A DNA stretch of 64,000 nt from Gammaproteobacteria bacterium (lineage in GTDB: Bacteria > Pseudomonadota > Gammaproteobacteria > QNFE01), in NCBI GenBank assembly GCA_003645455.1, contig QNFE01000004.1, forward strand, positions 3,406 through 67,405, given 5' to 3'. The position numbers were made by a program, and so were the translations under genes. Positions 49,991 through 62,505 of the stretch are shown here, in pieces; the first letter of the stretch is position 1, and each line of letters starts with the position of its first letter. The notes under the pieces were generated by a model. It searched no databases. It saw nothing but the letters and a program-made list of their open reading frames with translations, and had not been told where the DNA came from.

Positions 49991-50065
49991 TGGCTGGGTT
50001 GGCAGGATTCGAACCTGCGCATGACGGGATCAAAACCCGGTGCCTTACCGCTTGGCTACAGCCCA
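49991..50065 (-). tRNA. tRNA-Gln (anticodon UUG)
   Basis: The reverse complement TGGGCTGTAGCCAAGCGGTAAGGCACCGGGTTTTGATCCCGTCATGCGCAGGTTCGAATCCTGCCAACCCAGCCA gives a cloverleaf with anticodon loop TTTTGAT, a T-loop GGTTCGAATCC and an encoded CCA. It closely resembles E. coli tRNA-Gln. Confidence 0.8.
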
Positions 50066-51063: not shown

Positions 51064-53412
51064 TTAAACCAAAGCAATTTTAAAAACCTCTTCAATCCAC
51101 AACACGGGTTTTATTGTTATTTTTTGTAAAATAGTGACAGGAATTTCTTTTAAATCTTTTTCGTTTTCGGATGGAATAATAACTGTTTTGATGCCACCAC
51201 GATGGGCTGCGAGCAATTTTTCTTTTAAACCTCCGATAGGCAGAACTTCTCCTCGTAGAGTTATCTCGCCTGTCATAGCAACCGATGCTTTGACTTTTTT
51301 ATTTGCCAAAACTGATGCTAATGCTGTGCACATACCAACCCCTGCACTTGGCCCATCTTTGGGTGTGGCTCCCTCTGGCACATGAATATGAATATCTGTT
51401 TTTTTGTAATAGTCTTTTTTTAGTTTTAAATCATTATGTCTGTTGCGGACCACACTCATGGCAGTCTCAATAGATTCTTTCATAACGTCTCCCAGTGATC
51501 CAGTATATTTTATCTTACCATCACCTGCAAATGCCGCCGCCTCAATTGTAAGCAACTCACCACCTACTTGGGTCCATGCGAGCCCTGTAACTTGTCCTAT
51601 TTGGTTTTGTCTCGTAGCTTTACCATAGTTAAATTTATAGACTCCCAAATATTGTTCTAAATCATTAGGAGTTATCATAGTTTTAACTTCTTTTTTGTCA
51701 TCATCAGGGGCAAGGGCTATTTTTGTGACTACCTTGCGACAAACCTTAGCAATTTCTCTCTCTAAACCTCTTACTCCTGATTCACGAGTATATGTGCGGA
51801 CAATCTCTAAGATGGCAGATTTTGTAAAAAATATATCTTTTCTATCTAAGCCATTATTTTTTATTTGTTTAGGAATAAGGTATTTTTGGGCGATATTCGT
51901 TTTTTCATCCTCTGTGTAACCTGATATTTTTATAATCTCCATCCTGTCTAATAATGGCGGTGGAATATCAAGACTATTTGCTGTTGCCACAAACATTACA
52001 TCAGATAAATCATAATCAATCTCTAAATAATGATCGCCAAATGTGTTGTTTTGTTCTGGATCCAATACTTCTAACAAAGCTGAGCTAGGATCTCCTCTGA
52101 AATCTGTTGACATTTTGTCAATTTCATCCAATAAAAATAATGGATTGCTATTTTTAATTTTTGACAGATTAGTGATGATTTTGCCAGGCATTGATCCTAT
52201 GTAAGTTCTTCTATGTCCTCTGATTTGCGCCTCATCACGCACACCGCCGAGCGACATTCGGATGAATTTGCGCTTTGTGGCACGAGCGATTGAACGGGCA
52301 ATAGAAGTTTTGCCGACACCAGGTGGACCGACCAGACATAAAATAGGTCCTTTTAATTTTGCTACCTTGTTTTGCACAGCAAGATGTTCGGTGATTCTTG
52401 TTTTTACCTCATTCAATCCATAGTGATCTTTTTCTAATATGTTTTGTGCTTTGTTAAGGGTTTTTTCTAATCTGCTTTTTTTATCCCATGGCAGATCAAA
52501 AATAACATCAAGATAATTACGAATGACAGTCGCCTCGGAGCTCATAAGGTGCATTTTTTTGAGTTTTTTAAATTCTTTTTGACACTTTTCTTTGGCCTCG
52601 GAACTCATTTTAATTTTGGTAATTTTGCTTTCTATCTCTTTTAATTCTTCTTCATCATCGGCATCGTCATCTTTGTTGATCTCTTTTTTGAGGACTTTTA
52701 TTTGTTCGTTGACATAGTATTCTTTTTGGTTTTTGTCCATTTGTTTGCGAACTTTTGAATGAATTTTTTGTTCAATTTGCAAAACTTCCAATTCTTTTTC
52801 AAGATATTTTAAAATAATCTCCATTCTTGAGTCCAATTCAACGGTTTCTAAAATAGTTTGTTTGTCTGTTAGTTTTAATTTGATATGAGCCGATACCACA
52901 TCACACATAGCACCATAATTTGTCGTGTTTAGAACAGAGGATAAAATATCAGTGGGAATTTTACGATTGATTCTAACATATTGTTCAAAAACAGACAAAA
53001 CAGAACGAGACAATGCCTCAGATACTTTGTTATAACGATGTTTTTTGTCATATAGTGTTATATAATCTGCGACAAAATTTTGTGAATTATTTCTGATTTC
53101 AGTGGATACAGCACGATGCCTGCCCTCTATTAAAACCTTAATGGTGTTGTCAGGTAGTTTTACTAATTGTAAAATATTAGCAACTGTGCCGACCTTATAG
53201 AGATCTTTTAATTTGGGACTATTGGTTTTTGATGTTTTTTGGGTAGATAAAAAAATATTTTGATGGTTTTTGGTAGCAATATTTATAGCATTGATTGATT
53301 TTTTTCTGCCAATAAAAAGAGGAACCACCATCCCAGGGAATACCACCAAATCTCGCAAGGGCAATAAAGGAATAGTTTCTATTTTATGAATATCGTCTGT
53401 TGCAGTTGCCAT
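51064..53412 (-). CDS. lon: ATP-dependent Lon protease
   Basis: N-terminal LON domain, AAA+ Walker A GPPGVGKTS, and C-terminal protease PKDGPSAG; 782 aa. Confidence 0.95.
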   Translation of the reverse strand: MATATDDIHKIETIPLLPLRDLVVFPGMVVPLFIGRKKSINAINIATKNHQNIFLSTQKTSKTNSPKLKDLYKVGTVANILQLVKLPDNTIKVLIEGRHRAVSTEIRNNSQNFVADYITLYDKKHRYNKVSEALSRSVLSVFEQYVRINRKIPTDILSSVLNTTNYGAMCDVVSAHIKLKLTDKQTILETVELDSRMEIILKYLEKELEVLQIEQKIHSKVRKQMDKNQKEYYVNEQIKVLKKEINKDDDADDEEELKEIESKITKIKMSSEAKEKCQKEFKKLKKMHLMSSEATVIRNYLDVIFDLPWDKKSRLEKTLNKAQNILEKDHYGLNEVKTRITEHLAVQNKVAKLKGPILCLVGPPGVGKTSIARSIARATKRKFIRMSLGGVRDEAQIRGHRRTYIGSMPGKIITNLSKIKNSNPLFLLDEIDKMSTDFRGDPSSALLEVLDPEQNNTFGDHYLEIDYDLSDVMFVATANSLDIPPPLLDRMEIIKISGYTEDEKTNIAQKYLIPKQIKNNGLDRKDIFFTKSAILEIVRTYTRESGVRGLEREIAKVCRKVVTKIALAPDDDKKEVKTMITPNDLEQYLGVYKFNYGKATRQNQIGQVTGLAWTQVGGELLTIEAAAFAGDGKIKYTGSLGDVMKESIETAMSVVRNRHNDLKLKKDYYKKTDIHIHVPEGATPKDGPSAGVGMCTALASVLANKKVKASVAMTGEITLRGEVLPIGGLKEKLLAAHRGGIKTVIIPSENEKDLKEIPVTILQKITIKPVLWIEEVFKIALV

Positions 53413-53452
53413 AGGTATTTAAGGTTTTAGAAAAAAATTTTACAAAAAAGAA

Positions 53453-53479
53453 CATAAGGGCAAAATAAAAAATATCAAG
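53453..53479 (-). promoter_or_regulatory. Putative sigma-32 (heat-shock) promoter of lon
   Basis: On the minus strand CTTGAT-N13-CCCTTATG sits ~40 nt upstream of the lon start, against the consensus CTTGAAA-N13-15-CCCCATNT. Confidence 0.3.
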
Positions 53480-53594
53480 TTCAATCAAGACACCTGACAA
53501 GCAAAAACCCAACTAAAAAAATATTATCCTTAAAATTTGTTATAATATCTCATTTTTAATTGGTGTTTTCGCAAAATCAAACATTAAATTCCAT

Positions 53595-54080
53595 ATGACA
53601 AAAAACCAAACCACACAAAAATTACTCCAAAAAAGATTAAAAAAGGCTTCCAGGCATTTTACAGCATTAAAAGAATATAAGTTCTTAATAGAGCAAATTT
53701 TAATCGATAAGAATATTTACCAAGTAGATGAATACAAACAATTACAACCAGCAGACAGGGCAATATTTGATGCCTATTTAAAAAGATTTTCATCATTGCA
53801 AGATTTTCTGGGGGCAAAAATATTCCCATTGTTGCTTGATATAGCTGGTATAAATAATAACTCATTGAGCGAGGTTTTGTTATATGTTGAAAAAGAGCAG
53901 ATAATTGACAGTCTAGATAGTTGGATTGAGTTGCGAGCGATAAGAAATGAGCTAGAACATGATTATCCAGAGATTATAAGAGAGGCATTAGAGAACTTAA
54001 AATATTGTGTTGATAGTTTTGATAGAATAACTTCTTATTATAAAAATAGTGTCAATTTTTCTAATAAATACATAAAATGA
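53595..54080 (+). CDS. HEPN-domain protein (HepT-like putative RNase toxin)
   Basis: Carries the Rx4-6H motif in ELRAIRNELEHDY. At 161 aa and all-helical, it is immediately followed by nucleotidyltransferase genes. Confidence 0.6.
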   Translation: MTKNQTTQKLLQKRLKKASRHFTALKEYKFLIEQILIDKNIYQVDEYKQLQPADRAIFDAYLKRFSSLQDFLGAKIFPLLLDIAGINNNSLSEVLLYVEKEQIIDSLDSWIELRAIRNELEHDYPEIIREALENLKYCVDSFDRITSYYKNSVNFSNKYIK

Positions 54081-54370
54081 GACTATCAACAAGAATTATA
54101 AGTATTTTAAAAAATAATATCCATACCAGTTTTGGTGATGTTGAGGTATATTTATTCGGTAGTCGTGTAGATGACAACAAATTAGGTGGGGATATTGATC
54201 TTGCCATTGATACTAATATAAATAACCAAAAATTTTTAAAAAATAAGATAAAATTTGACTGCCAGATGATAAGAGCAGGTTATGATTTAAAAGTTGATTT
54301 AGTAAAATACAATCACTGGGACGATTTATTAAACAGACAAATAAAAAACGATGCTATTAAATTATTTTAA
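54077..54370 (+). CDS. Minimal nucleotidyltransferase (MNT, Pol-beta superfamily) protein, copy 1
   Basis: LFGSRVDDNKLGGDIDLAID matches the GS-x9-13-DhD NTase motif. Its start overlaps the HEPN stop (ATGA). Confidence 0.7.
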   Translation: MRLSTRIISILKNNIHTSFGDVEVYLFGSRVDDNKLGGDIDLAIDTNINNQKFLKNKIKFDCQMIRAGYDLKVDLVKYNHWDDLLNRQIKNDAIKLF

Positions 54371-54376
54371 ATTAAA

Positions 54377-54664
54377 ATGAGATTATCAAAACAAGATATA
54401 AATATTATAAAAAATACAATTCTTGACAACATAAACGATGGCAAAATTACTCTATTCGGCAGCCGTGCAGATGACAATAGAAAAGGTGGCGATATTGATT
54501 TAATGGTGGAGACAAATAAAAATATTAGTTTTGCAACTGAGCTTAATATTTTAACAAAATTAGAATTAAATGGCATTGAGAGAAAAGTAGATCTATTGCT
54601 TAAAGCTCCAAATTCAACACCACACAATATTTATAAAAAAGCGAAAAAGGGAGTACTGTTATGA
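54377..54664 (+). CDS. Minimal nucleotidyltransferase (MNT) protein, copy 2 (paralogue of copy 1)
   Basis: LFGSRADDNRKGGDIDLMVE. The N-terminus MRLSKQDINIIKN parallels copy 1 MRLSTRIISILKN. Confidence 0.7.
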   Translation: MRLSKQDINIIKNTILDNINDGKITLFGSRADDNRKGGDIDLMVETNKNISFATELNILTKLELNGIERKVDLLLKAPNSTPHNIYKKAKKGVLL

Positions 54665-55539
54665 TACAGAAACCTCCAATAACAACTGGTAAACAAAATA
54701 TACAAGATAAAATTTATACTTTAAGAGATGTTCAGGTAATGTTAGACAGAGACTTAGCTGAACTTTACGGGACTAAATCTACAAGACTCAGAGAGCAGGT
54801 TAAAAGAAATATAAAAAAATTTCCACAAGATTTTATGTTTGAACTTACTGAACCTGAAACTAATTTGATGGTATCGCAAAATGCGATACCATCAAAACAG
54901 CATTTAGGAGGCAGTTTGCCACTTGTATTCACTGAGCAAGGTGTTTCTATGCTGGCCACTGTTTTAAAAAGTGATATTGCTACACAAATAAGCATAAAAA
55001 TTATGAGAGCTTTCGTCAATATGCGAAAATTCATTTTATCTAATGCAGATATGTTTATGAGATTTGAAAGAATAGAGCATCGCATATCTTTACATGATGA
55101 AAAGTTCAATAAATTATTTCAAGCTATAGAAAACAAAGAGACCAAACCAAAACAACATATATTCTATGATGGACAAATATTTGATGCTTATCTTTATGTC
55201 CGTGATATTATAAAGTCGGCTAAAAAATCTATAAAACTTATAGATAACTATATAGACGAGAGTATTTTAGTATTATTTACAAAAAGAAATGCAGATGTAG
55301 ATATGAAAATATATACAAAAACTATATCCAAGCAATTAGAATTAGACATAAAAAAATATAATGCCCAATATCCAAAGATTGAGGTAAAAAAATTTGCTTT
55401 ATCCCATGATAGATTTTTAATCATAGATGAAAAAAAGATATATCACTTCGGAGCAAGCTTAAAAGATCTTGGCAAAAAATGGTTTGCAGTTTCAAAAATG
55501 GACATAAACTCTTTTGAACTTTTAGAGAAGTTAAAATAG
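54661..55539 (+). CDS. ORF6N (KilA-N-like) domain protein
   Basis: The N-terminal LRDVQVMLDRDLAELYGTKSTRLREQVKRNIKKFPQDFMFELT matches the ORF6N DNA-binding domain. The C-terminal half is uncharacterised. Its start overlaps the MNT2 stop. Confidence 0.65.
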   Translation: MIQKPPITTGKQNIQDKIYTLRDVQVMLDRDLAELYGTKSTRLREQVKRNIKKFPQDFMFELTEPETNLMVSQNAIPSKQHLGGSLPLVFTEQGVSMLATVLKSDIATQISIKIMRAFVNMRKFILSNADMFMRFERIEHRISLHDEKFNKLFQAIENKETKPKQHIFYDGQIFDAYLYVRDIIKSAKKSIKLIDNYIDESILVLFTKRNADVDMKIYTKTISKQLELDIKKYNAQYPKIEVKKFALSHDRFLIIDEKKIYHFGASLKDLGKKWFAVSKMDINSFELLEKLK

Positions 55540-56793
55540 ATGTTAAATAAACTCAAACCAAAATCAGAGTTTAGTCGTAATGTCCTAACTCTTATGACAG
55601 GTAGCACCATCGCCCAAGCTATCCCTATCGCTATTAGCCCTATTTTAACCAGAATTTACACTCCTGAGGATTTTGGGATATTTGCTTTATATATGAGTAT
55701 TGCCTCCATCATAGCGGTCATTGCCACAGGGCGCTATGAATTAGCAATAATGTTACCAGAAAAAGATGAGGATGCTATCAATATTGTAGCTTTATCTGCC
55801 ATCATTACAGTTATCATAAGCCTTTTAACTTTATCAATAGTTATAATATTCAACTTGCAAATTACGAATTTATTAGGCAACCCCCAAATCTCAAATTGGT
55901 TATATCTTGTGCCTATTAGTGTGCTTTTGACAGGATTTTATCAAAGTTTTAATTATTGGTCTAACCGCCAAAAACAATACAAAACCTTAGCACAAAATAA
56001 AGTTATTCAAAGCACCTCAACAGCTGGGGTCAATTTAAGTATGGGGCTGGCAAAATGGGGGGTTGTAGGTTTAATATGGGGCAATATTATAGGGCAAACT
56101 CTTGCTAGTGTAATTTTATTTAAAAATATTTTGAAAAAAAATCATAATTTGCCAACGGCAATCAATAAAAACAAAATAATTAAAATGTTGAAAAGATATA
56201 TAAAATTCCCCAAATATGATATAATATCAGCACTTGCCAACACCTCGGCACAACAGATAACCCATATTTTATTCAATATAATTTACAACCCTGCCATAGC
56301 AGGCTTTTTTTATTTTACTCAAAAAATACTTTCAATGCCAATCACTTATATATCATCTGCCATCTTAGATGTCTTTAAAGAGCAGGCAGCCCGAGATTAT
56401 AAAAAATATAATAACGCTAAAAAAATATATAAATCAACATTTATCAAATTGATGATGATTGCTATCTTGCCTTCTGTTTTTTTATATTTTTTTGCAGTTG
56501 ATATGTTTGTTATAGTTTTTGGAGAAAAATGGCAAATAGCAGGTGAATATGCCAAAATTTTGTCTCCCATGCTTTTTTTCAGATTTATGGGCAACCCATT
56601 GAGTTTTATGTTTTATATTGGCGAGAGGCAAATTTGGGATATGTATAGTCAGACACTATTGCTGTGCAGTATTCTGCTGTCTTTTTTTTGGAACACTAAT
56701 GCAACACAAACTGTATATTTTATATCTTTGGTGTTTTCTATTTTTTATATATCTCAAATTTTTTTATCCGCAAAAATTGCTAAAATATTCTAA
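55540..56793 (+). CDS. wzx: Wzx-like oligosaccharide/O-antigen flippase (MOP superfamily)
   Basis: 417 aa with ~12 TM helices and a polysaccharide-biosynthesis-protein pattern. It heads a glycan cluster. Confidence 0.65.
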   Translation: MLNKLKPKSEFSRNVLTLMTGSTIAQAIPIAISPILTRIYTPEDFGIFALYMSIASIIAVIATGRYELAIMLPEKDEDAINIVALSAIITVIISLLTLSIVIIFNLQITNLLGNPQISNWLYLVPISVLLTGFYQSFNYWSNRQKQYKTLAQNKVIQSTSTAGVNLSMGLAKWGVVGLIWGNIIGQTLASVILFKNILKKNHNLPTAINKNKIIKMLKRYIKFPKYDIISALANTSAQQITHILFNIIYNPAIAGFFYFTQKILSMPITYISSAILDVFKEQAARDYKKYNNAKKIYKSTFIKLMMIAILPSVFLYFFAVDMFVIVFGEKWQIAGEYAKILSPMLFFRFMGNPLSFMFYIGERQIWDMYSQTLLLCSILLSFFWNTNATQTVYFISLVFSIFYISQIFLSAKIAKIF

Positions 56794-61086: not shown

Positions 61087-62241
61087 ATGGAAAATATAAC
61101 TGTTTCAATTAAAAACAAACAAATCGGTGAGCTTTTTTATGATGAAAGTTTGCATCAATACGGTTTTAATTACAATAATGACGTGGCTCCTATATCATTG
61201 ACTATGCCATTTAAAAACTCAACCTATCTATGGCAAAATAAACTCCATCCAATTTTTGATATGCACATGCCAGAGGGTTATTTGTTTGAAGTATTTAAAA
61301 ACTATCTTAATAAAAAACACGGATTTATCAATGATTTTCTAATTTTTTCTTATTTATCGGCTAATATTCAAAGCAGATTGGAATTTAAAAGTGAATTTGC
61401 GGTTAAGAAATTTAAAAGTTTGGAGTTATCTTATATATTACAAAATGATGATAACGATACTTTTTTAAAACTTGTTAAAATGTTTCTATCTAAAAACTCT
61501 ATCTCTGGTATTCAACCTAAAACCATCGCAGTTGTAAAAGACAAAGAGGCTTTAAATTATCGTGAATATATTGTAAAAACATGGGGTGATGAATATCCGC
61601 AGTTGGCTCTTAACGAATATTTTTGCTTAAAAGCCGTGCAAGAATCAGGGGTTACTATCCCTCATATTCATCTATCAAATAACAACAAATTTTTACTGGT
61701 TGAAAGATTTAATTATGATAAAAAAAATAATAAATTTTTAGGTTTTGAAGAAGTTCTGGGTTTAATGGGTAAAAATTCTTCGCAGAAATATACGGGTAGT
61801 TATGAGCAGGTGGCAAAACTAATCTATAAAATAACAACCGATAAAATCGCAGATATGACAAATTTTTATAAAATAATGGTGATGAATTATTTACTTAAAA
61901 ATGGCGACGCTCATCTTAAAAATTTCGGCATAATTTATAATGATGATTTTTCCGTTATAAAACTTGCCCCAGCTTATGATATAGTTAATACCGTGGCATA
62001 TTTATATGACGATAAACCTGCTCTTACGATGTTTGGCAAAAAAGTCTGGTTCGGCAAAAAGGATTTATTAAAATTTGGCATCAAACATTGTTATTTATCC
62101 AAAACACAAGCTAATAGATGCTATCAAGATTGTTTTTTATCTTTGCAAGAAAACCACCAAAAATTAAAAAAATATATAAAAACAAATCCTGATTTTGTTA
62201 ATATAGGCACAAAAATGTTAGACAGTTGGAGGGTAGAATAG
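61087..62241 (+). CDS. HipA-like Ser/Thr kinase toxin
   Basis: The HipA N-terminal region (IGELFYDES...FDMHMPEGYLFE) and the kinase catalytic motif NGDAHLKNFGI (DxHxxN) are both present. Confidence 0.75.
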   Translation: MENITVSIKNKQIGELFYDESLHQYGFNYNNDVAPISLTMPFKNSTYLWQNKLHPIFDMHMPEGYLFEVFKNYLNKKHGFINDFLIFSYLSANIQSRLEFKSEFAVKKFKSLELSYILQNDDNDTFLKLVKMFLSKNSISGIQPKTIAVVKDKEALNYREYIVKTWGDEYPQLALNEYFCLKAVQESGVTIPHIHLSNNNKFLLVERFNYDKKNNKFLGFEEVLGLMGKNSSQKYTGSYEQVAKLIYKITTDKIADMTNFYKIMVMNYLLKNGDAHLKNFGIIYNDDFSVIKLAPAYDIVNTVAYLYDDKPALTMFGKKVWFGKKDLLKFGIKHCYLSKTQANRCYQDCFLSLQENHQKLKKYIKTNPDFVNIGTKMLDSWRVE

Positions 62242-62244
62242 AGC

Positions 62245-62505
62245 ATGAATTTAGATGAAATAGGACCCAAAATACAACAACTTAGAAAAAGTTTAAAAAT
62301 AACTCAACAGGAACTATCAGATTTAAGTGGCATAAGCCGGGTTACCTTAGGCAAATTAGAGCGAGGAGAAATTGCTCCAATTTCTTTAAAAACTCTCGAT
62401 TTGATTTTAAATAAACTCAATTATGAAATAGATTTTGTCGTAAAAAATAAATTTTCTTTGCCGACTTTGGATCAAATGGGACAAGACAGTAAGTTTTATA
62501 CATAA
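62245..62505 (+). CDS. XRE-family helix-turn-helix protein (HipB-like putative antitoxin), encoded downstream of the kinase
   Basis: ITQQELSDLSGISRVTLGKLERGE is an HTH_XRE motif. It starts 4 nt after the hipA-like stop. Confidence 0.7.
   Translation: MNLDEIGPKIQQLRKSLKITQQELSDLSGISRVTLGKLERGEIAPISLKTLDLILNKLNYEIDFVVKNKFSLPTLDQMGQDSKFYT

Follow-up and report, generated by a model that had tools for sequence, protein, structure and literature searches.

Three probably independent mobile modules between lon and a surface-glycan operon of a gammaproteobacterium, and a candidate structured hairpin in one of them

Do four small genes with overlapping or adjacent stop and start codons form one system, or several that have come to lie side by side? 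This question is raised by a HEPN-MNT-MNT-ORF6N cassette (MNT, minimal nucleotidyltransferase) in a metagenome-assembled Gammaproteobacteria bacterium (locus tag DRQ51_01675), where it lies within a stretch of 64,000 nucleotides (nt) of contig QNFE01000004.1 (positions 3,406 to 67,405), which was analysed as a whole and is called the window here. An earlier note, made from the sequence alone, described the cassette as a HEPN/MNT toxin-antitoxin module with a duplicated nucleotidyltransferase and an ORF6N partner. Our reading, to which we give a probability of roughly 0.72, is that the cassette consists of three mobile modules, independent of one another and juxtaposed ahead of the wzx operon, and is not one system: a HEPN-MNT pair, a solitary MNT of a different subfamily and an ORF6N gene that stands alone. 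This reading rests on the folds, the motifs and the conserved pairings that we observed, and on the absence of conserved linkage between the modules. The cassette and its surroundings, in window positions, are as follows.

51064-53412, - strand: lon, divergent, upstream of the cassette
53413-53594, no strand: 182-base-pair (bp) intergenic gap between lon and the cassette, the sole non-coding gap upstream of the cassette
53595-54080, + strand: HEPN-domain protein of 161 amino acids (aa), from the list of open reading frames (ORFs); predicted RNase toxin of a HEPN-first subfamily
54077-54370, + strand: MNT1, 97 aa, minimal nucleotidyltransferase of 'type A'; putative cognate antitoxin of the upstream HEPN
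54377-54664, + strand: MNT2, 95 aa, minimal nucleotidyltransferase of 'type B'; apparently an intact orphan
54661-55539, + strand: ORF6N plus PLD-fold protein, 292 aa; single-gene candidate defence element, PADLOC class PDC-S05
54864-54896, + strand: hairpin inside the ORF6N coding sequence, with a 15-bp stem and a 3-nt loop
55540-56793, + strand: wzx-type flippase, first gene of the glycan cluster (Pfam Polysacc_synt_3, E = 5e-25); context, outside the modules

The four + strand ORFs and their overlapping or adjacent junctions agree exactly with the earlier description, as does the position of the cassette between lon and the glycan cluster. HEPN and MNT1 share an ATGA overlap, MNT1 and MNT2 are 6 nt apart, MNT2 and the ORF6N gene share a second ATGA overlap, and wzx starts at the base after the ORF6N stop codon (TAG followed by ATG, 55540). 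Downstream of wzx, genes for a DUF7033 protein, Wzy (Wzy_C), a GFO/IDH/MocA oxidoreductase and a hexapeptide transferase are tightly packed. Judged by their homologues, all four ORFs are genuine conserved genes and none is a chance ORF: we retrieved 700 homologues for the 161-aa protein, 842 for MNT2 and at least 8000 for the ORF6N protein, and MNT1 matches 77 partner MNTs of the loci surveyed below.

Is the first protein a HEPN? It had no match in Pfam at E <= 0.01, and single-sequence searches of Pfam, NCBIfam, PADLOC and the PDB sequences returned sub-threshold matches only. Its score against TIGR01987 was 19.2 bits (E = 9e-4) versus a cut-off of 55.8, and its relatives score under the cut-off of Pfam NTase_sub_bind. 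The AlphaFold2 model, built with 32 homologues, is all-helical, with a pLDDT of 90.9. All of its 12 top Foldseek matches in the PDB are HEPNs of HEPN/MNT pairs or relatives from the HI0074 family, among them Legionella 8yuf, 8xdj and 8xeh, Aphanizomenon 7ae6, HI0074 (1jog) and TTHA0048 (1wty). Target-normalised TM-scores of these 12 matches were mostly 0.68-0.77, and 0.49-0.59 for the two 7ae6 chains, at sequence identities of 12-16%. With hhalign, the 161-aa family aligned end to end with the ~150-aa HEPNs that follow MNT genes (probability 99.94%, E = 7e-37), and the profile of the latter in turn matches HI0074 (1jog; E = 3e-6) and the Legionella HEPN toxin (E = 1e-3).

The 161-aa protein carries R117-N-E-L-E-H122, and R117, H122 and Y124 (R-x4-H-x-Y) are invariant in the 32 homologues and align with the invariant R, H and Y of the sister HEPN family and with RNLTNHTY of TTHA0048. 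Fold, profile alignment and invariant R117/H122 bear out the earlier identification of a HEPN with Rx4H in AIRNELEHD, and the confident HEPN model answers the worry, raised at the same time, that structure prediction might reveal no such fold. Fold and profile comparisons place the protein in the HepT / NTase_sub_bind branch of the HEPNs, and by analogy with that branch we predict a dimeric RNase toxin that uses the R-x4-H site. The ~160-aa HEPN-first subfamily to which it belongs is without a Pfam domain, and every named record in it says 'hypothetical protein'.

Does this HEPN have a constant partner? We surveyed 80 loci from GTDB species-representative genomes, fetched with the HEPN family profile and annotated with purpose-built hidden Markov models (HMMs). 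An intact ~160-aa HEPN gene was followed directly by an MNT gene in 64 of the 80. The two genes overlap in nearly all intact pairs, with stop/start overlaps of 4 nt (33 loci), 1 nt (15 loci) and 14 nt (10 loci). The HEPN-first order, which had been presented as a departure from the usual one, is thus real at this locus but no oddity, as it is the fixed order throughout the 160-aa subfamily. Eight loci (L062, L072, L074, L076 and L094-L097) had a split, frameshifted or truncated HEPN beside an intact MNT, compared with two that had an intact HEPN without an MNT, an asymmetry that fits the expectation of the HEPN as the harmful partner. The proteins flanking the pair (n=110) fell into 168 Pfam families, none seen more than three times, so that neighbours are unrelated between genomes. 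Hosts are patchy, comprising Campylobacterota, Spirochaetes, several gammaproteobacterial orders, Cyanobacteria and Melainabacteria, at ~45-70% identity. Kept pairing, unrelated neighbours and patchy hosts are the signature of a mobile two-gene toxin-antitoxin system. Carriage of the HEPN on plasmids or phages was considered and rejected, a search of 72,556 plasmids having given 0 matches.

MNT1 fits the role of the partner. It matches Pfam Polbeta at E = 7e-9, and both MNTs score above the Pfam gathering cut-offs of Polbeta and NTP_transf_2 and carry G28-S29 and D39-x-D41, in agreement with the GS...DIDL motif reported for them. Over its full length MNT1 is up to 63.5% identical to MNTs directly following 160-aa HEPNs. 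Of the residues shared by at least 85% of its family it has changed one only (L64M), and it keeps the family-invariant catalytic set G28, S29, D39, D41 and D74; its family profile matches HI0073 and MntA 5yep. On these sequence and model comparisons HEPN and MNT1 form a type VII toxin-antitoxin module, and the earlier proposal of a HEPN/MNT module at this locus holds for this pair. By analogy with characterised relatives, the HEPN would be toxic as an RNase and would be neutralised by MNT AMPylation of the motif tyrosine.

The position of the pair suggests another role. Since the cassette heads a wzx/wzy operon, HEPN and MNT might be accessory enzymes of glycan synthesis, a nucleotidyltransferase with its substrate-binding subunit, as was first proposed for HI0073/HI0074. 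The first three HEPN-first contexts, and three of the four contexts of the closest relatives of MNT2, did lie inside sugar-biosynthesis clusters, one example being a run of overlapping genes in the order acetyltransferase - MNT - HEPN - NeuB. However, the general link between pair and glycan cluster that the first three contexts hinted at was not upheld in the 80 species-representative loci, where flanks were heterogeneous and each glycan family accounted for ~2 of 110 neighbours. Decay of the toxin with retention of the MNT in eight loci also argues against such a role, and the relatives that have been characterised are toxic RNases that AMPylation neutralises (PMC7641770, PMC11586414). In addition, other toxin-antitoxin genes (PIN/RHH, PemK, ParE, HipA) occupy the same glycan clusters, which suggests that variable glycan loci serve as sinks for mobile genes. 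We consider a role of the pair in glycan synthesis very unlikely.

Insertions of this sort were seen repeatedly as a separate observation, with toxin-antitoxin or candidate defence genes wedged into sugar-biosynthesis operons through overlapping stop/start codons, as in the NeuB example. The cases come from Arcobacter cloacae CP053833 (L002-L004) and from loci L005, L011, L100-L103 and L014-L019; in another example, HEPN-MNT, RHH-PIN and PemK genes together lie between epimerase and glycosyltransferase genes.

What, then, is the second nucleotidyltransferase? MNT1 and MNT2 are 54% identical over residues 1-48 (the catalytic core) and 21% identical in the C-terminal half. In each half MNT1 is nearest to type A, the partners of HEPN-first toxins, and MNT2 is nearest to type B. 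The two are thus members of different subfamilies in both halves and not the duplicated pair of the earlier note. A recent duplication or gene conversion was rejected by the same comparison, which puts each half with its own subfamily. A direct repeat with a spacing of 300 nt does run across the two genes (44 nt at 82% and 72 nt at 75% identity), and it is due to the shared GSR.DD..GGDIDL core.

Type-B MNTs share up to 66% identity with MNT2, whose family profile matches HI0073 (1no5) at E = 1e-6, the Legionella MNT 8xeh_E at E = 8.5e-6 and MntA 5yep. Its four closest relatives with a readable context (66%, 65%, 66% and 51% identity) all belong to MNT-then-HEPN pairs with an ATGA overlap, the downstream partner being a ~150-aa NTase_sub_bind HEPN. 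No second HEPN, intact or decayed, was found in the 64-kb window, where tblastn with 16 type-B HEPNs matched only the 161-aa gene; a surviving remnant of a lost type-B HEPN was rejected as a candidate on this result. The junction that such a HEPN would have used is still there. The sequence [TC]TATGA closes all seven junctions compared (that of MNT2 in the window and those of six type-B MNT/HEPN pairs); its ATG is, in the window, the start of the ORF6N gene, at the place where a type-B HEPN would start. The 'MIQ' N-terminus of the ORF6N protein was considered as a relic of a HEPN start and found too weak, as only two of seven type-B HEPNs begin with MIQ and the ATGA overlap leaves little choice for the second codon.

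An undisturbed version of the arrangement, HEPN - MNT(A) - MNT(B) - HEPN(B), is intact in L059, a Leptospirales metagenome-assembled genome, and in the metagenome contig L005, and the mirror arrangement of both pairs occurs in L024 and L078. Another solitary MNT without an adjacent HEPN lies at L005:2329-2616. By subfamily and residues, MNT2 comes from another subfamily than MNT1 and is an orphan antitoxin, itself intact but with its own HEPN missing. Two pairs of opposite order were probably once adjacent, the second HEPN having since been lost or displaced.

Intactness need not mean function, and MNT2 might be a functionless, decaying remnant that has yet to acquire disabling mutations. Its partner HEPN is absent, and since its nearest relative in 5.8 billion proteins is 66% identical, recent selection is not measurable. 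Yet MNT2 has a full-length frame and matches its family at 27 of 28 positions with a conservation of 85% or more, the whole catalytic set included (G28, S29, D39, D41 and D72, all family invariants), which makes it no pseudogene, and the context of its start codon and the coupling junction are also kept. The decay of one MNT copy, which the earlier note had named as a possible finding, was not observed, as both MNTs keep their catalytic residues. We regard a functionless MNT2 as possible but somewhat doubtful.

Might both MNTs instead serve the one HEPN? In a single integrated system, the MNTs would be specialised, either to initiate and to extend an AMP chain or to respond to different triggers, and the ORF6N protein would be a DNA-binding regulator or sensor. 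Tight packing, with overlapping or abutting stop-start codons throughout, agrees with this, as do the intact catalytic residues of both MNTs and the 25-35% identity between the 161-aa HEPN and the usual partners of MNT2-type proteins (tblastn). HEPN-MNT-MNT adjacency also recurs, in L059 and L005. However, the second MNT of L059 and L005 is followed by a HEPN of its own, giving two complete pairs, and a type-B MNT directly after the pair was found only in L059 among the 80 surveyed loci. In addition, the C-terminal halves of the MNTs, 21% identical, are subfamily-specific, and in solved complexes it is MNT helices that contact the HEPN (PMC11586414). None of 80 relatives of the ORF6N gene has an MNT or HEPN neighbour. 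One integrated system is unlikely on this evidence.

The ORF6N protein itself proved to have two domains. Pfam ORF6N matches residues 17-101 (E = 2e-30), as the earlier note had recognised, although it missed a second domain with a PLD fold. In the model, the ORF6N domain is followed by a helical linker and by a C-terminal alpha/beta domain with a pLDDT of ~90. Foldseek matched this domain (~165-285) to NucT (6ehi, E = 2.5e-5), Nuc (1byr, E = 1.1e-3), Zucchini and PLD3, and it is 47-51% identical to annotated RhuM family proteins. PADLOC model PDLC04869 (PDC-S05) aligned with nearly the whole protein (E = 1.5e-116, residues 8-291 versus model positions 11-300 of 306). The family has an invariant motif, H249-D-R251-x4-D256-x7-G264-A-S266-L-K268, which departs from the canonical PLD motif HxK(x4)D(x6)GSxN in having Arg instead of Lys and a modified GSxN element.

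Neighbours of ORF6N relatives were surveyed in 80 metagenome loci. No adjacent MNT or HEPN was found in any of them, and the two weak MNT-like matches nearby were both more than 400 nt off; a partnership of the ORF6N protein with the HEPN/MNT genes, as proposed earlier, is not supported. The commonest flanking proteins were HsdM (13/93) and HsdS (5/93) of type I restriction-modification systems, and relatives also occur on conjugative Legionella plasmids. The closest relatives, in Campylobacterota (76-82% identity), lie inside glycan operons with overlapping stop/start codons, as in WbqC-ORF6N-DegT and in Wzm-ORF6N-Wzt of Sulfurospirillum multivorans. Full-length relatives were absent from 50,697 phage records, and among 2.9 million viral contigs 24 loci matched, almost always by the C-terminal domain alone. 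Most contexts are chromosomal or plasmid-borne, and the label of a phage antirepressor type does not suit this protein.

The idea of a mobile ORF that inserts precisely between genes was also examined and rejected: codirectional junctions of at most 10 nt were found on the upstream side in 18 of 54 cases and on the downstream side in 13 of 46, which is frequent but no rule. We also noted tandem arrays of two or three ORF6N-PLD and RhuM-type paralogues on metagenome contigs L132, L133, L157 and L174.

A narrower partnership would join only MNT2 and the ORF6N-PLD protein, in a new two-gene module in which MNT2 restrains a PLD-type nuclease toxin as MntA restrains HepT. The two genes share an ATGA overlap, and the ORF6N gene stands precisely where the HEPN gene stands in MNT(B)-HEPN(B) pairs. 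But no ORF6N-PLD relative in the 80 loci has an MNT directly upstream, and all four close relatives of MNT2 are paired with a HEPN. ORF6N-PLD genes also overlap unrelated upstream genes (WbqC, Wzm), and because such overlap is a habit of the gene it is no evidence of partnership. We consider a module of this kind highly improbable.

On its neighbourhoods, the ORF6N-PLD gene is a stand-alone element and no partner of the HEPN/MNT pair. By analogy, its product possibly acts alone as a DNA-targeting defence effector. A defence context is supported by the association with restriction-modification operons. A representative of PDC-S05 with a RhuM domain reduced plating of T7 and T5 ~1000-fold in E. 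coli (bioRxiv 10.1101/2024.09.26.614923). In the same report, the representative of PDC-S09, an MNT-like class, is absent from the four systems reported as protective (bioRxiv 10.1101/2024.09.26.614923).

Several points weigh against our reading of three modules or against parts of it. The 161-aa protein falls below every curated family threshold (Pfam PF08780/PF01934, TIGR01987), which is why its membership among the HEPNs rests on fold and profile-profile evidence. The RX4H motif of the Legionella HEPN has been reported to lie outside the active site, a Mg2+ site at Q44/E47 being proposed (PMC11586414), and as this homologue is the closest structural match, the catalytic detail of the 161-aa HEPN may differ from the RX4H mechanism. 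Displacement of a HEPN by the ORF6N gene is read from junction geometry only, with no relative above 70% identity for a reconstruction. MNT2 could have arrived already orphaned; the MNT at L005:2329-2616 is another orphan. It could also act on the 161-aa HEPN, which is conceivable given the 25-35% identity of this HEPN to MNT2-type partners. Finally, the inactive PLD-like proteins FAM83B and MITD1 are among the top fold matches of the C-terminal domain and score equally with the nucleases; together with HxR in place of HxK, this makes nuclease activity of the domain uncertain.

How might the three modules behave if our reading is correct? In what follows, RNase activity, AMPylation, a toxic phenotype, co-transcription and any defence role are predictions drawn from characterised relatives. 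Transcription would start in the 182-bp gap next to lon and run through the cassette into the O-antigen/wzx operon. As the sole upstream non-coding gap, 53413-53594 probably holds the promoter for both the cassette and the glycan genes; it contains weak sigma-70-like matches at 53439-53466 and 53494-53522, which agree at 9/12 positions and are consensus matches only. A scan to position 56000 found no terminator-like site on the + strand between or after the four cassette genes, and a single one at 53809-53828, within the HEPN gene. No Rfam family matched the cassette at E <= 0.1. The HEPN would be translated first, with translation of MNT1 coupled to it through the ATGA overlap.

The GS...DxD centre of MNT1 would then add AMP to Y124 of the R-x4-H-x-Y loop and so switch the RNase off. 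This step is modelled on Shewanella, where MntA, by way of its GSX10DXD motif, attaches three AMPs to Y104 of HepT (in RX4HXY; PMC7641770), and on Legionella, where Y105 of the HEPN is AMPylated by a short MNT of the same operon, the two genes having an 8-bp overlap (PMC11586414). If the supply of MNT1 or of ATP dropped, as on loss of the locus or on phage attack, unmodified HEPN would accumulate and cleave RNA, and growth would stop. Next to this pair, a type-B HEPN would have been displaced or deleted, leaving the ORF6N gene at its ATGA junction and MNT2 as an orphan. MNT2 might persist as a spare antitoxin against incoming type-B HEPNs or, less likely, act on the resident HEPN; it might also be a recent relic. 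The ORF6N (DNA-binding) and PLD-fold (nuclease-like) protein would act alone.

How do these modules compare with known systems? Shewanella HepT/MntA is likewise a two-gene module of a HEPN with RX4HXY and an MNT with GSX10DXD. HepT/MntA-type structures (7ae6, 6m6u, 7bxo) match the fold of the 161-aa HEPN, and the MNT profiles match MntA 5yep. It differs from the window pair, which is toxin-first and has a HEPN of ~160 aa and MNTs of 95-97 aa compared with 139 aa for MntA; identity to the structural matches is 12-16%, and the window HEPN stays below curated thresholds. The best structural match and nearest characterised relative is Legionella pneumophila lpg2920/lpg2921 (8xdj, 8xeh, 8yuf), a pair in one operon with overlapping genes, a short MNT of 108 aa and Y105 of RX4HXY as the AMPylation site. 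The type-B MNT profile matches its MNT at E = 8.5e-6. In contrast to these likenesses, identity is ~13%, and the Legionella HEPN is an autoinhibited tetramer with the proposed Mg2+ site Q44/E47. Haemophilus influenzae HI0073/HI0074 (1no5/1jog; TIGR01987) belongs to the same family at the level of fold and profile, but there the MNT comes first, and the window HEPN scores 19 bits against the TIGR01987 cut-off of 55.8. By its fold, its motif and its pairing, module 1 is thus a type VII HEPN/MNT system, falling short only of the curated sequence thresholds.

The ORF6N-PLD protein matches over its full length PDC-S05, which we group with the 'virulence RhuM family' proteins found within type I restriction-modification operons. 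The tested representative differs in having a RhuM rather than an ORF6N N-terminus, and the window copy lies in a glycan operon. PLD nucleases (Nuc, NucT, Zucchini and PLD3) resemble residues ~165-285 in fold (Foldseek E 2.5e-5 to 1e-3) and in the position of the motif, which reads HxR(x4)D...GxSxK in the window protein compared with HxK(x4)D(x6)GSxN. Orphan antitoxins and the candidate class PDC-S05 are already known as categories.

Is there anything in the cassette that fits no known category? The sole such element is a hairpin inside the ORF6N coding sequence. A scan for repeats detected it at 54864-54896 as a 15-bp stem without mismatches around a 3-nt loop (TTTGATGGTATCGCA aaa TGCGATACCATCAAA); it encodes ...LMVSQNAIPSK... 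and, as RNA, has a folding energy of -27.8 kcal/mol (z-score -9.4). A hairpin occupies the corresponding position in homologous genes from many phyla (L014, L018, L129-L208 and L211-L290), with arm sequences that differ between lineages. It has a stem of 9-16 bp and a fixed place ~25-33 nt upstream of the P..FTEQG codons. It also occurs in ORF6N-only proteins of 190 aa and in RhuM-type paralogues, and ORF6N genes of viral contigs have stems of 9-14 bp in nine of 14 distinct sequences. In the model, the hairpin maps to a stretch of somewhat lower confidence of the ORF6N domain (block-mean pLDDT 73-82). No Rfam family corresponds to it, and a literature search found no description.

Covariation was assessed in 48 distinct 51-nt segments, picked by protein-alignment coordinates alone and aligned with MAFFT, among which there are 22 distinct arm pairs. 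Nine core pairs are formed in 92-100% of the 48 sequences, and one of them is A-U in 25, G-C in 17 and C-G in six, with zero mismatches. The covariation score was 0.403, compared with 0.157 in shuffles (0/500 reached the observed value) and at most 0.112 with the partner columns slid. RNAalifold independently recovered eight pairs, six with compensatory changes. When synonymous codons were resampled with the peptide fixed, the mean best perfect stem fell from 8.9 bp to 3.5 bp, and 34 of the 48 sequences were individually at p <= 0.01 in this control. The encoded residues change together in the way that pairing of the stem requires (Ser/Ala, Ser/Val, Phe/Gly, Arg/Thr and Lys/Ile). In ORF6N-PLD genes of L159, L186, L168, L172, L185 and L208, two or three hairpins occur in tandem as in-frame insertions; the copies encode repeated (S)LR[SF]Q[NFI][AG]T[LS] peptides, and each has self-complementary arms of its own.

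These patterns lead us to favour, by a modest degree, a structured nucleic-acid element that acts in cis and whose stem is kept by compensatory changes. Because complementarity is conserved and the sequence is not, it would most likely work as an intrastrand structure, in mRNA or in single-stranded DNA. Wobble pairs, of which eight are wobble on the sense strand and three would be wobble on the antisense strand, are too few to separate RNA from DNA. The element might let a potentially toxic gene regulate itself, signal processing or pausing, or provide a recombination site at which N-terminal variants are swapped. A second, shorter hairpin (8-bp perfect stem, 3-nt loop) was noted at 55227-55245, in the PLD-domain half of the gene, and a hairpin like it recurs at ~nt 560-570 of genes in L144, L160 and L187.

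Two further features of the window lie outside the cassette. Just past the glycan genes, at 61087-62505, a HipA-family kinase of 384 aa (HipA_C, E = 2e-42) is followed after 3 nt by an 86-aa helix-turn-helix protein, a second toxin-first pair resembling a toxin-antitoxin system. On the other side, tRNA-Gln(TTG) lies on the - strand between prs and ispE (49991-50065), ~3.5 kb from the cassette; no integrase or repeat was seen that ties it to the cassette.

The cassette is of modest interest in itself, and the hairpin, found incidentally, is the more interesting product. The cassette adds an unannotated, ~160-aa HEPN-first subfamily to the type VII HEPN/MNT systems, and what appears as a 'two-antitoxin' operon would be two different modules, one of them minus its toxin. 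It also illustrates clearly how toxin-antitoxin genes and candidate defence genes stack up at the start of variable surface-glycan operons and within them. Software that calls defence systems automatically would probably list PDC-S05 and PDC-S09 here and overlook the type VII pair. ORF6N/RhuM-type genes are very common in restriction-modification operons, plasmids and phages. If functional, the hairpin would be a widespread and so far undescribed cis-element in a large, defence-associated gene family, and would show with unusual clarity how the structure of a nucleic acid can dictate protein sequence.

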